A stretch of 64,000 bases of DNA from a virus (taxonomy: Duplodnaviria > Heunggongvirae > Uroviricota > Caudoviricetes): IMG/VR virus record IMGVR_UViG_3300021963_000033; one strand, written 5' to 3'. Position numbers and translations under genes: made by a program. Within the stretch, counting starts at the first letter, position 1; every line of letters begins with the position of its first letter. This document shows, one piece after another, positions 35,877-39,901 of the stretch. Under the pieces are notes generated by a model. That model worked only from the letters and a program-made list of their open reading frames with translations. It was not told the origin of the DNA and did not search any database.

Positions 35877-36449
35877 TTGGCAAATCCGTTTCAGAGACTT
35901 CGCGCCCAAGCAGGAGATGGACAAAAGTCCATGGATTGGTACATGCGAAATGTGAAGAACCTCGTGGGCGCGAGGTTGTCTCAGAACAGCGTAATGAAAT
36001 CTGATATTGGCGAACTAAACTCCAGTATCGAGATCGGTTCAATGTATATGTATTTCTACGATCCAAAGTTGAAGGAAGAACTTCCTTTCTATGATACCTT
36101 TCCGTTGGTGCTGCCGTTTGGTCCAGCAAAAGGTGGATTCTATGGAATCAATTTACATTATCTACCTTACCTGTTACGAGCACAAGTTCTTGGTGAGTTG
36201 TTAGATTATAAAACAACCAAGACATATTCTGAAACAACCAAGTTGCGTATGTCATACAATCTGTTAAACAACTTGAAGAATGCGAATGAAGTCAAACCAT
36301 GTATCAAACATTATCTGACCAATCATGTTAACTCGCAATTTTTGAAAGTCAACCCTGAAGACTGGCAGGCAGCAATATTCTTACCGATCGAGAACTTTGT
36401 GGGTGCTACAAAAGAACAAGTATTCAGAGATTCTAGGAGCAAATTCTAA
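35877..36449 (+). CDS. gp2: DNA end protector protein gp2
   Basis: GSMYMYFYDPKLKEELPFYDTFPLV, GINLHYLP, KPCIKHYL, A.FLP.ENF. Confidence 0.88.
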   Translation: MANPFQRLRAQAGDGQKSMDWYMRNVKNLVGARLSQNSVMKSDIGELNSSIEIGSMYMYFYDPKLKEELPFYDTFPLVLPFGPAKGGFYGINLHYLPYLLRAQVLGELLDYKTTKTYSETTKLRMSYNLLNNLKNANEVKPCIKHYLTNHVNSQFLKVNPEDWQAAIFLPIENFVGATKEQVFRDSRSKF

Positions 36450-37027
36450 TGGTCGCAGCATACCATAATATAAACGATTTCGTATCACAAGTCAAAAAAA
36501 CAGATTTGGCGAGGTCGAATAGATTTGAAGCGATGTTTCCAGCACCGCCGATCCTTCAGGGACATTCTACAACACAAGGCGATTCGCCAAAACTAATTTC
36601 AATGATGGTGGAAGATGCCATGTTTCCTGGGATGTTAGTGGGAACCAGACCATATAGAATAAACAATTTAAATGAACAAAGAGCAAATGCTATTGATTTT
36701 GGTGGAGACTCAATCACATTTACATTTCTAGTTGACACATCATGGACAGCAAAAGATTTCTTCGGAGATTGGATGCGAGAGATAGTCGATCCGACTTCTA
36801 GGTACGTAAGATATCCAGCAGATTATTATAGTGAAATTGATTTGGTTTCTCTCAATAACGAAGATAATGTTATTGCTCAGTGGAAAATTATAGATGCATT
36901 CCCAAGATCTATTGCACCAATTACTGTTTCTTCGACTAATGCGCAAGTTCTTAGAATGCCAGTAACATTCGCATACAAACGATGGGAAGTTGTTGGAGCA
37001 TATACTCCCGCAGGTGAACGAATTTAA
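36449..37027 (+). CDS. tail tube initiator (gp54/gp19-fold)
   Basis: LARSNRFE..., FPG...T, AFPRSI..I, VTFAYKRW tube-fold motifs, located after gp2. Confidence 0.7.
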   Translation: MVAAYHNINDFVSQVKKTDLARSNRFEAMFPAPPILQGHSTTQGDSPKLISMMVEDAMFPGMLVGTRPYRINNLNEQRANAIDFGGDSITFTFLVDTSWTAKDFFGDWMREIVDPTSRYVRYPADYYSEIDLVSLNNEDNVIAQWKIIDAFPRSIAPITVSSTNAQVLRMPVTFAYKRWEVVGAYTPAGERI

Positions 37028-37042
37028 AAATTGGAGTAAATT

Positions 37043-37729
37043 ATGACATTACCTACATTATCAGTACCAACATTTGACGTTGAAGTATATTCTACAAAAC
37101 AAACAGTGAGGATGCGACCCTTTCTGGTCAAAGAAGAAAAGATTTTAATACTCGCCGCAGAGTCCAACAGTAAAGCGGATATGATTCGTGCTATGCGGCA
37201 AGTTATTGCATCATGCGCAAACAATCAAATTGATGCAGAAAATCTACCATTCTTTGATCTGCAAAATATCTTCATAAAGTTACGAGCACAGTCTATTGGA
37301 AACGAATCAGAATTTAATCTAATCTGCGGAGAATGCGGTCACAAGACTCCGACAATCTTAAACTTAGATCAGATTCAATTACAAATTACCGAAGAGCACA
37401 CACAAAAAATTCTACTAGCAGATGATATTGGTGTGATCATGAAATATCCTACTGCTGATATTCTGACGCAAGAAGATATGCCAGTGTTCGATCTAGTTGC
37501 TGCGTGCGTAGATAAAATCTTCACACAGGATGAAATACATTCTGCCGAGGAAGAGGGCCATGACGCAGTATGCAATTTCTTGGATGGATTAACGTCAGAA
37601 CAATTTGATAAGATTGCGCATTTTTTTGTGACTTCACCAAAAATTTACCACCGCATGGATTATGATTGCAGCAAGTGCGGTACAGATAATTCAGTTGTCA
37701 TCGATGGTATAGAAAATTTTTTCGGATAA
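37043..37729 (+). CDS. gp26: baseplate hub assembly protein gp26-like
   Basis: LPTL.VPTF......TKQTVRMRPFLVKEEKILILA, FDLQNIFIKLRAQSIG, two CxxC motifs, GIENFF end. Confidence 0.88.
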   Translation: MTLPTLSVPTFDVEVYSTKQTVRMRPFLVKEEKILILAAESNSKADMIRAMRQVIASCANNQIDAENLPFFDLQNIFIKLRAQSIGNESEFNLICGECGHKTPTILNLDQIQLQITEEHTQKILLADDIGVIMKYPTADILTQEDMPVFDLVAACVDKIFTQDEIHSAEEEGHDAVCNFLDGLTSEQFDKIAHFFVTSPKIYHRMDYDCSKCGTDNSVVIDGIENFFG

Positions 37730-37896
37730 CCCTTTCTCATGATAATTTGATGAATTTCTACAAGATTAACTTTATTTTGATGCATGAGCATAAATATAGT
37801 TTAACTGAATTAGAAAATATGATGCCGTGGGAAAGGGAAGTTTATATTGGAATGCTAATTACACATCTGAAAAAGAAAGCAGAGAACCAGGATTAA
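37723..37896 (+). CDS. gp51-like short ORF, probably expressed as a -1 frameshift extension of gp26
   Basis: The -1 frame reads RITLSHDNLMNFYKINFILMHEHKYSLTELENMMPWEREVYIGMLITHLKKKAENQD. The first ATG (37750) has no SD, and the T TTT TTC heptamer sits at 37717-37723. Confidence 0.7.
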   Translation, partial: RITLSHDNLMNFYKINFILMHEHKYSLTELENMMPWEREVYIGMLITHLKKKAENQD

Positions 37897-37897
37897 A

Positions 37898-39901
37898 ATG
37901 GAACAAGAACAAAAACCAATCCGCGGAGAAGGAAAAGAGCAGCAATTGAATAAAATTGCTGCTGCAGTAAACATAGGTTCTGCGGTCGAGGCAAATAAAT
38001 CCTCTACTTCTGCTATGATTGGCACGTTCGCCAAACTCTTTAATCAGAATGCATTAGAGATTATCGATAATATCGAAGACAATCAAAAAGATCTCATCAA
38101 GAATATGGTCAATGAGATCACAAAACTGCAGACTAAAAATATCTCTGAATTTGAAAAAGCAATTGCCAAAGTGGTTGCGCTATCAGAAAAACTAGTGGAA
38201 ACAGGAAATCCTGCTCAACAAAAACTAGGAGAAGCTGTCAAGGGACAGGCTCAAGAAGAATTACTCAGGGCAAAAGGTATAACTCTTTCAGGCGAAAAAG
38301 ATACCTTTCTTAACAGAATGGGTAGAGAAGTCGGAATAAAGACTGACGAAGATCCTCTCGCAGCAAAAACTGGTGGAATCGGAAAGATCGCAAAAGGATT
38401 CTTAAGCGAGGCAAAAGGCGGTTTCATGATGGGTGCTGGTCCAGAAGAAGGTGGATTTTACGATAGAGTTTTCAGAACAGATGAAACTAAACGACAGAGA
38501 GAACTTTCTCGTAATGAAGAAAGAGTCTCCAATGAAACTAACGTAAGCGCGGAAGAACTGTTTAAGAAAACAATCGAAGAAATTCTTAATCAAAAAACAG
38601 AAGAAGCAAAAAATAGCGAAACTGATTCTAATGTTAGCAATGAAAACAATGTAACTTCTACTGTTCTAGAGAAATTAAGTGATATTACAGAAGAGCAGAA
38701 GAAGATACTACAAGAAAAGGGTATCGCGCCTGCCTCGGAAAACGATATTTCGTATAGAAAAGACGGGAAGGTTTTAAGTAAAGAAGAAGTTTTTGCTGCA
38801 CTGAAAGAAAGACCAACTACCAGTAGCGAATCCCAAGAAGATGCTGCTGGTGTTTCAAAAGACGCAAAGATAGAAGCATTTACGAGAATTGCTGAATCTT
38901 CAACCATTCTCCAAGAAAATTCAGGTGAATCCTTGGACATATTTAAGAAGATGCTCGAAAAGATGGATTATCTTGCCAAGTGGTTCGAGGATAATGGTTC
39001 AACACTGCTGTCTGGTTTTAATGCTGGCGGTTCAGGGGGCGGATTACTTGATACTCTTGGTGATGCTGGTGATTTGATTGGTAATAAAGGTTTTAAAAAA
39101 CTTGGAGGGTTCGCTCGCAAAGCTGGAGGATTTCTTTCTAAGAATGTCGGTAAACTTGGTGCAGTTGCTGCTGTCGGTATGGGAGCATATCAGGGTATTA
39201 CTGGATATAATGATGCCGCTGATCAGGAAGAAGCGCAAAACGCAGATATTGAAAATAAAGTAAAAAGTGGTGAAATTACACCACAGCAAGCAAAACAACT
39301 GAAAGAAGAAAACAAAAAATCAGCAACTGTTAACAAAGGAAAGGCAGTAGGTTCCGGTGCAGGAACTGCAATCGGTGCAATTGCTGGTGGCGCACTAGGT
39401 TCTCTTCTCGGTCCAGTCGGAACAGTCGCAGGTGGTGCTGCTGGCGCATGGTTGGGCGAAAAGGCAGGCGGTTGGTTGGGTGAAAAAGCAGGTGGACTGA
39501 TCAATTACTTCAGCGGTGATGATAAAACAAAAGCAACTGCAGAAAAACCGAAAGAAGGTGTGTTTTCTAAAATCGGTAATTTCGCTAAGGATAACAAAGG
39601 AGCATTGATTGGTGCTGCATTGGGTCCAGTCGGAATGGCGGGTGGAGCATTACTAGACATGCAAAGTAAGAAAACTGCAAAACCTGAAACTGGAAAAAAT
39701 GTTGACAGTTCTATTATCGAAGCAGGAACTGAAGCAACAAGAGATAAAATGAGAATTAATGTCCCACCACCAACAGTAATTCAACAAAATACCGGAACAT
39801 CTGCAGGGGGACCAACAATAACTGCGCCAGGGGGTGTCGCAAACGTTAGAACTGACGACCCGACTTGGTTAAGATTCCAGCAAAAAAGAGCAGTGGCATA
39901 A
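37898..39901 (+). CDS. tape-measure/gp29-like protein
   Basis: Helical, low-complexity 667-aa protein with Gly/Ala hydrophobic segments (GAIAGGALGSLLGPVGTVAGGAAGAWLG), following the gp26/gp51-like genes. Confidence 0.6.
   Translation: MEQEQKPIRGEGKEQQLNKIAAAVNIGSAVEANKSSTSAMIGTFAKLFNQNALEIIDNIEDNQKDLIKNMVNEITKLQTKNISEFEKAIAKVVALSEKLVETGNPAQQKLGEAVKGQAQEELLRAKGITLSGEKDTFLNRMGREVGIKTDEDPLAAKTGGIGKIAKGFLSEAKGGFMMGAGPEEGGFYDRVFRTDETKRQRELSRNEERVSNETNVSAEELFKKTIEEILNQKTEEAKNSETDSNVSNENNVTSTVLEKLSDITEEQKKILQEKGIAPASENDISYRKDGKVLSKEEVFAALKERPTTSSESQEDAAGVSKDAKIEAFTRIAESSTILQENSGESLDIFKKMLEKMDYLAKWFEDNGSTLLSGFNAGGSGGGLLDTLGDAGDLIGNKGFKKLGGFARKAGGFLSKNVGKLGAVAAVGMGAYQGITGYNDAADQEEAQNADIENKVKSGEITPQQAKQLKEENKKSATVNKGKAVGSGAGTAIGAIAGGALGSLLGPVGTVAGGAAGAWLGEKAGGWLGEKAGGLINYFSGDDKTKATAEKPKEGVFSKIGNFAKDNKGALIGAALGPVGMAGGALLDMQSKKTAKPETGKNVDSSIIEAGTEATRDKMRINVPPPTVIQQNTGTSAGGPTITAPGGVANVRTDDPTWLRFQQKRAVA

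Follow-up and report, generated by a model that had tools for sequence, protein, structure and literature searches.

Do T4-like phages make their hub and tape measure assembly chaperones from two genes, as T4 does, or can a single gene 26 be read in two ways? The end of gene 26 in the DNA described here raises this question. In lambda-like and many other tailed phages, the tail assembly chaperones encoded upstream of the tape measure gene are made as short and long frameshift products. Xu, Hendrix and Duda are said to have described, in 2004, a conserved -1 frameshift in tail assembly chaperone genes. As a recoding event of tailed phages it ranks with the best conserved, and T4 is named as the exception; according to a review, conservation of the G-T frameshift extends over the long-tailed phages 'except T4' (Atkins et al. 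2016, PMC5009743). T4 looked like an exception to the rule because it makes the pair from separate genes, 26 and 51. The T4 literature counts both gp26 and gp51 among the chaperones of hub assembly and states that the virion lacks gp51 (Leiman et al. 2010, PMC3004832).

The window, by which we mean the whole stretch of DNA analysed (64,000 nucleotides), comes from an uncultured T4-like water phage. The features that concern us are, in order:

36449..37027, + strand: tail-tube-family gene (gp19/gp54-like), directly 5' of gp26; phrog_45 'tail tube' at 1.7e-34, PF06841 at 2.7e-4 (below the cutoff)

37043..37729, + strand: gp26 gene, 0 frame, 228 aa, the short product; Pfam PF12322 'T4_baseplate' at 5.7e-58 over residues 9-227, phrog_150 'baseplate hub' at 1.9e-62

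37717..37723, + strand: slippery heptamer T_TTT_TTC, in gp26 phase (AAT TTT TTC)

37727..37729, + strand: 0-frame stop TAA, one codon 3' of the heptamer

37723..37896, + strand: predicted -1 frame extension, 57 codons plus a stop, a gp51-like C-terminal domain with three predicted helices; phrog_634 'baseplate hub assembly catalyst' (gp51) at 4.8e-24

37898..39901, + strand: 667-aa tape-measure-like gene; weak PHROG matches, including phrog_973 'tail length tape measure protein' at 9.8e-6

An earlier reading of the letters, called here the sequence-only reading, had proposed that gp26 ends in an in-phase heptamer T TTT TTC, that the -1 frame then stays open to a stop at 37896 and that the next ATG lies at 37898. 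All of this is borne out. In the frame of ORF 37043..37729, positions 37712-37729 read GAA AAT TTT TTC GGA TAA, and T_TTT_TTC at 37717-37723 satisfies the X_XXY_YYZ phase. Upstream, the -1 frame is limited in the window by a stop nine codons before the two FF codons; beyond them it runs FFRITLSHDNLMNFYKINF...AENQD to a stop at 37894-37896, and the next ORF begins with the ATG at 37898, 2 nt past that stop. The earliest TTG and ATG of the -1 frame are at 37747 and 37750, respectively, and no purine-rich Shine-Dalgarno sequence was found before them in CCCTTTCTCATGATAATTTG. The LSHD segment does lie 5' of the first ATG, as had been noted.

We consider it very probable that this gp26 gene is decoded in two ways by a programmed -1 frameshift and that the resulting 228-aa and 284-aa forms make up a G/GT-like pair. 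Most ribosomes would stop at the TAA at 37727 and yield the 228-aa gp26, and a fraction of them would shift one base backwards at U_UUU_UUC (37717-37723), to continue in the -1 frame to 37896. Base 37723 is then read twice, and the predicted length of the slip product, a gp26-51 fusion with the junction ...GIENFF/RITLSHDNL..., is 227 + 57 = 284 aa. The slippage would presumably be ribosomal and would proceed by tandem tRNA re-pairing on U_UUU_UUC. By analogy with lambda gpG/gpGT, the short and long forms would act together as a hub/tape-measure assembly chaperone pair, with a predicted chaperone-like N-terminal domain as their shared body and a three-helix tail added in the long form. It is from the comparative evidence that we infer the fusion protein.

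This evidence comes from 84 loci: 80 were taken from IMG/VR (gp26 identities of 31-73%), three from cyanophages, and one is that of the window itself; the gp26 identity range of the whole table is 31-100%. When 2 kb around the site was searched by blastn against 50,697 phage records, the only conserved stretch was window 37684-37851, i.e., the junction. Comparison of the gp26 3' ends indicates that the heptamer is conserved in the homologues: an in-phase T_TTT_TTN is present in 84/84 loci (72 TTC, 11 TTT and 1 TTA), and both the heptamer and the -1 ORF were found on reading the junctions of seven other GenBank phages. The seven are the Vibrio phages KVP40 and EniLVp02, phiM12 (Sinorhizobium), Pelagibacter phage Mosig, Cronobacter S13, Stenotrophomonas YB07 and Aeromonas avDM6. 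In 79 of the 84 loci a single codon separates the heptamer from the 0-frame stop; the -1 ORF is 57-68 codons long across the 84, and the -1 peptide is carried by 541 phage records (tblastn).

The codon usage at the site displays a pattern as well. The codon before the TTT of the heptamer is NNT in all 84 loci, with seven codon types that specify N, S, D, H, A or R, while the T-ending share for those same amino acids elsewhere in the same genes is 0.58. Likewise, the first Phe codon of the site is TTT in 84/84 loci vs a TTT share of 0.72 among the Phe codons elsewhere in the same genes. Even if the number of independent lineages is taken to be 20, the all-NNT outcome has a P of about 2e-5. The heptamer is more than a chance occurrence: it is in phase in 84/84 loci, and both the NNT and the TTT are invariant against backgrounds of 0.58 and 0.72.

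The coding signal changes frame at the same point. Third-position variability and codon periodicity follow the gp26 frame upstream of the site and the -1 frame from the first post-slip codon, so that in the compared loci a -1 frame coding signal is found 5' of the position of ATG 37750. Residue conservation, in the form R, I/V/L, x, L, x, H, x, x, L, starts at that same first post-slip codon and is kept across the loci; this agrees with the statement, in the sequence-only reading, that the LSHD segment is conserved in the family. Taken together, the comparative data strongly support the central proposal of that reading, a programmed -1 frameshift that fuses gp26 to a gp51-like ORF.

Two phages outside these sets depart from the pattern. 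In Salmonella phage SP1 (Ackermannviridae; L094 2560-2640) the -1 ORF is kept and the run has only 4 T (ATT TTC), and the same is found in Vibrio phage D524 (L098 2430-2500; CTT TTC), where there is also a TAATG overlap. In these two phages a single P-site slip or a coupled re-initiation may possibly replace the heptamer.

It is very improbable, in our judgement, that the gp51-like ORF is translated alone as a peptide of ~6 kDa, whether by termination-reinitiation at the gp26 stop or by initiation at a near-cognate or internal codon (TTG 37747 or ATG 37750), with the T-run being mere Phe-Phe coding. Such a peptide would fit the separate small 'gp51' annotated in several GenBank records and the TAATG or TGATG overlaps in KVP40 and EniLVp02. 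Coupled re-initiation could occur in phages of the KVP40 and P-SSM2 type, where an ATG follows the slip site within 2-3 codons (3 in P-SSM2). However, no start position is conserved, the first -1-frame ATG being 3, 9, 11, 18, 19, 32, 43 or 55 codons downstream depending on the locus. An ATG, GTG or TTG occurs 5' of the conserved R-I-x-L-x-H-x-x-L segment in only 9 of the 84 loci and is absent in the other 75, and yet this segment itself has the codon periodicity of the -1 frame. In T4, the gp51 domain never occurs apart from a PF12322 body, and in the window the absence of a Shine-Dalgarno sequence before 37747/37750 likewise argues against a separate start. Nor can Phe-Phe coding account for the wobble T before the TTT, which is invariant across six amino acids. 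T4 gp26 (208 aa), which ends in ..GLKEFFELL, keeps the FF without a T-run (spelled GAG TTC TTT, which is not slippery), and it is a natural negative control for the slip site.

Transcriptional slippage, in which RNA polymerase would add one U within the T6-T7 run so that a subset of the mRNAs carries both parts in one frame, would give the identical fused protein, and sequence comparison can only partly tell the two mechanisms apart. The T-run is homopolymeric and reaches T7 in 11 of the 84 loci; in most loci, however, it is T6 with a C behind it. The transcriptional slippage sites known from bacteria and phages generally require a run of about 8-9 or longer. The strict X_XXY_YYZ phase, wobble T included, fits tandem tRNA re-pairing, and SP1 and D524 keep the -1 ORF with a 4-T run that is too short for polymerase slippage. 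We therefore regard polymerase slippage as very improbable.

That the frame break is a homopolymer sequencing or assembly error, or a chance overlap, is already refuted as far as the compared sequences can tell: homopolymer runs are error-prone and the ENA metagenome protein P0001 joins the two domains without a change of frame, but the same frame relation recurs in 84 independent metagenome or isolate assemblies and in the seven GenBank phages, and the -1 peptide recurs in the 541 records. P0001 itself (225 aa) carries PF12322 and a gp51-like domain (PF28602) in a single frame with the junction ..REFF-L-IALSHES..., and it represents either a genuine in-frame fusion belonging to the frameshift clade or the product of a homopolymer indel.

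For a ribosomal -1 frameshift, our preferred reading, stimulatory elements around the slip site were sought. No consensus for a downstream RNA structure was obtained from 78 unique junctions (RNAalifold), the single-sequence fold of the window junction is unremarkable (z -0.79), and an Rfam search of the site gave nothing relevant (one chance sub-threshold match to Xist). No conserved upstream Shine-Dalgarno-like element was found across the compared junctions. The GAG GGA present in many loci was considered as an upstream stimulator and rejected, since it is not conserved as nucleotides; the window has GAT GGT. The sole other conserved feature at the site is the nearby 0-frame stop. Because neither a conserved stimulatory structure nor a Shine-Dalgarno-like element is present, slip efficiency may be low. 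A stimulatory element is not obligatory for this class of -1 frameshift, and none is known in lambda G/GT either. Promoter signals were also considered. The string CATAAATA at 37813-37820 resembles the core of a T4-type late promoter, and an internal late promoter there was rejected: the NATAAATA form occurs in only 33 of 78 relatives, and so the string is explained by HKY codons. No sigma-70-like promoter was found on the + strand.

How, then, are the two predicted products related to the two T4 genes? As listed above, gp26 belongs to PF12322 and the 57-residue -1 peptide matches the gp51 family phrog_634. The -1 peptide also matches the C-terminal end of phrog_150 (positions 235-278 of 282; 9e-7), which implies that some members of that family carry the segment in frame. 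T4 gp51 (249 aa) has the same two parts, i.e., a PF12322 domain at residues 1-201 (3.9e-52) followed by a C-terminal tail, and residues 201-244 of this tail align with the window -1 peptide from the predicted junction onward. An hhalign comparison of 45 of the -1 peptides with T4 gp51 gave an E of 1.5e-4. The junctions line up as ..DVF/KLLVNPDEIFTFYQIN in T4 gp51 and ..NFF/RITLSHDNLMNFYKIN in the window or, in letters, as ..DVF/KLLVNPDEIF and ..NFF/RITLSHDNLM. Because T4 gp51 consists of a PF12322 body and a tail that aligns with the -1 peptide, the predicted fusion is, judged by sequence, the orthologue of T4 gp51, and by the same token T4 genes 26 and 51 are paralogues. The description of the -1 ORF as gp51-like thus stands with respect to the relationship (phrog_634 and the alignment); the notion that gp51 is only this small piece does not, as T4 gp51 is a full gp26 paralogue plus the extension.

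The two systems are alike in that window gp26, T4 gp26 and residues 1-201 of T4 gp51 all belong to PF12322 and in that one body occurs in a short and a long form. They differ in that T4 has two diverged paralogous genes without a slippery run, whereas the window has a single gene with a predicted frameshift, placed between a tube-family gene and a tape-measure-like gene. In T4, gene 26 is next to gene 25, gene 51 heads the series 27-28-29, and the two are on opposite strands; a fusion would therefore be neither possible nor needed. Besides T4, Aeromonas ZHF and Pseudomonas PspYZU05 were found to have this arrangement in two genes. In contrast, most of the T4-like lineages sampled, including cyanophages, pelagiphages, KVP40-like vibriophages, phiM12 and Stenotrophomonas, Cronobacter and Aeromonas phages, would appear to use the slip in gene 26.

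The gene neighborhood bears on the comparison with G/GT. The order in the window, which is tube-family gene, gp26, -1 ORF and tape-measure-like gene, is the same in KVP40, phiM12 and Cronobacter S13, and the phiM12 equivalent of the 667-aa gene is annotated as having 'similarity to phage tape measure proteins'. The sequence-only reading had called this downstream gene a tape measure, and its position, its composition and the weak PHROG matches (phrog_973 in particular) are consistent with that assignment; on the other side, the 667-aa protein has no significant similarity to T4 gp29, and it has no match to phrog_1283, where T4 gp29 is placed. We would thus assign it as a tape measure only tentatively.

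The similarities to the known chaperone systems are several. Like lambda gpG/gpGT, HK97 gp13 and P2 E/E+E', the locus has a -1 slip, predicted in our case, close to the chaperone gene's 3' end, and it would have the same placement between tube and tape measure genes. P2 also uses a U-run, TTTTTTG. As in the lambda type, there would be a short form and a C-terminally extended one, with no obvious stimulatory structure at the site. One difference is that window gp26, at 228 aa, is larger than the lambda type and carries additional alpha/beta and Cys-motif regions.

The AF2 model of gp26 (pLDDT 90) consists of an N-terminal part of ~90 aa that resembles tail assembly chaperones, followed by an alpha/beta region and CxxC...CxxC motifs; AF2 also predicts three helices for the -1 extension (pLDDT 86). 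The best three of 48,161 chains in a VIA-align search with the gp26 model all cover residues 1-95, with Z values of 6.5-7.7 that are moderate and in a range called common by the tool:

3fgx (Rbstp2171): Z 7.7, 85 aligned residues, rmsd 4.0

2ob9 (HK97 gp13, a tail assembly chaperone): Z 6.7, 84 aligned residues, rmsd 4.0

3klu (YqbN): Z 6.5, 85 aligned residues, rmsd 4.1

These same three structures are named as the solved phage tail assembly chaperones (PMC9603447). The coincidence of identity among the top three fold matches is strong, and the N-terminal ~90 aa of the model superpose on HK97 gp13, YqbN and Rbstp2171 alike. Neither a Foldseek search of the gp26 model against the PDB nor a sequence-profile search of PDB sequences gave a significant match, to a chaperone or otherwise, and Pfam and profile searches found no sequence similarity of gp26 to any Phage_TAC family. 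The analogy to G/GT drawn in the sequence-only reading is supported by the gene order together with the chaperone-like fold predicted for the gp26 N-terminal domain.

In the gp26 model the two CxxC motifs, ICGECG and CSKCG, are at residues about 93-100 and 207-213. The pair suggests a putative zinc ribbon, which agrees with weak Pfam zinc-ribbon matches and with small zinc-finger structural matches to model residues ~90-227. The cysteines of the motifs are not invariant across the gp26 family.

One can go a step further and propose that gp26 and gp26-51 are the true G/GT-type chaperones of the T4-like phages, that their N-domain is homologous to HK97 gp13 and lambda gpG, and that the one-gene frameshift form, much the most common state, came first and was resolved into the paralogues 26 and 51 in T4 and its near relatives. 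On this broader proposal we are evenly divided. In a PF12322 tree, the T4-type gp26 and the T4-type gp51 N-domains are each monophyletic, and the tree gives neither the relation of these T4-type domains to the frameshift-type genes nor the ancestral state. If the proposal is true, the sole reported exception to the tail chaperone frameshift would be removed, and the long-enigmatic gp51 of T4 would gain a concrete function. The reading of gene 26 in two ways also offers a testable model for T4 hub and tape measure assembly, with gp26 in the G role and gp51 in the GT role.

A frameshift would also account for the 'short gp51' of the cyanophages. The gp51 of cyanophages and KVP40 has been described as about 20% of the length of T4 gp51, lacking the first ~200 aa and aligning to the C-terminal region (Sullivan et al. 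2010, PMC3037559). That gp51 and the -1 ORF of the window are the same ORF; the difference is that it was taken as a stand-alone reduced gene and that no frameshift was proposed. We found no published report of a 26/51 frameshift in a literature search or in GenBank records, and none of the GenBank records inspected has a joined, ribosomal-slippage CDS. In every record inspected the -1 ORF is either unannotated, as in many of them, or given an arbitrary start, and this would expose a systematic annotation error across the phage records that carry it (541 of them hold the -1 peptide). In cyanophage, Cronobacter and Aeromonas GenBank/RefSeq records (L001, L091, L092, L093, L095 and L097), for example, the gp51-like ORF is unannotated and a gap of about 160-190 nt follows gp26. 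At least one annotator already regards gp26 as a tail assembly chaperone, for in the record of Acinetobacter phage Octan (MT409116.1) the gp26 homologue is annotated as a 'tape measure protein assembly chaperone'.
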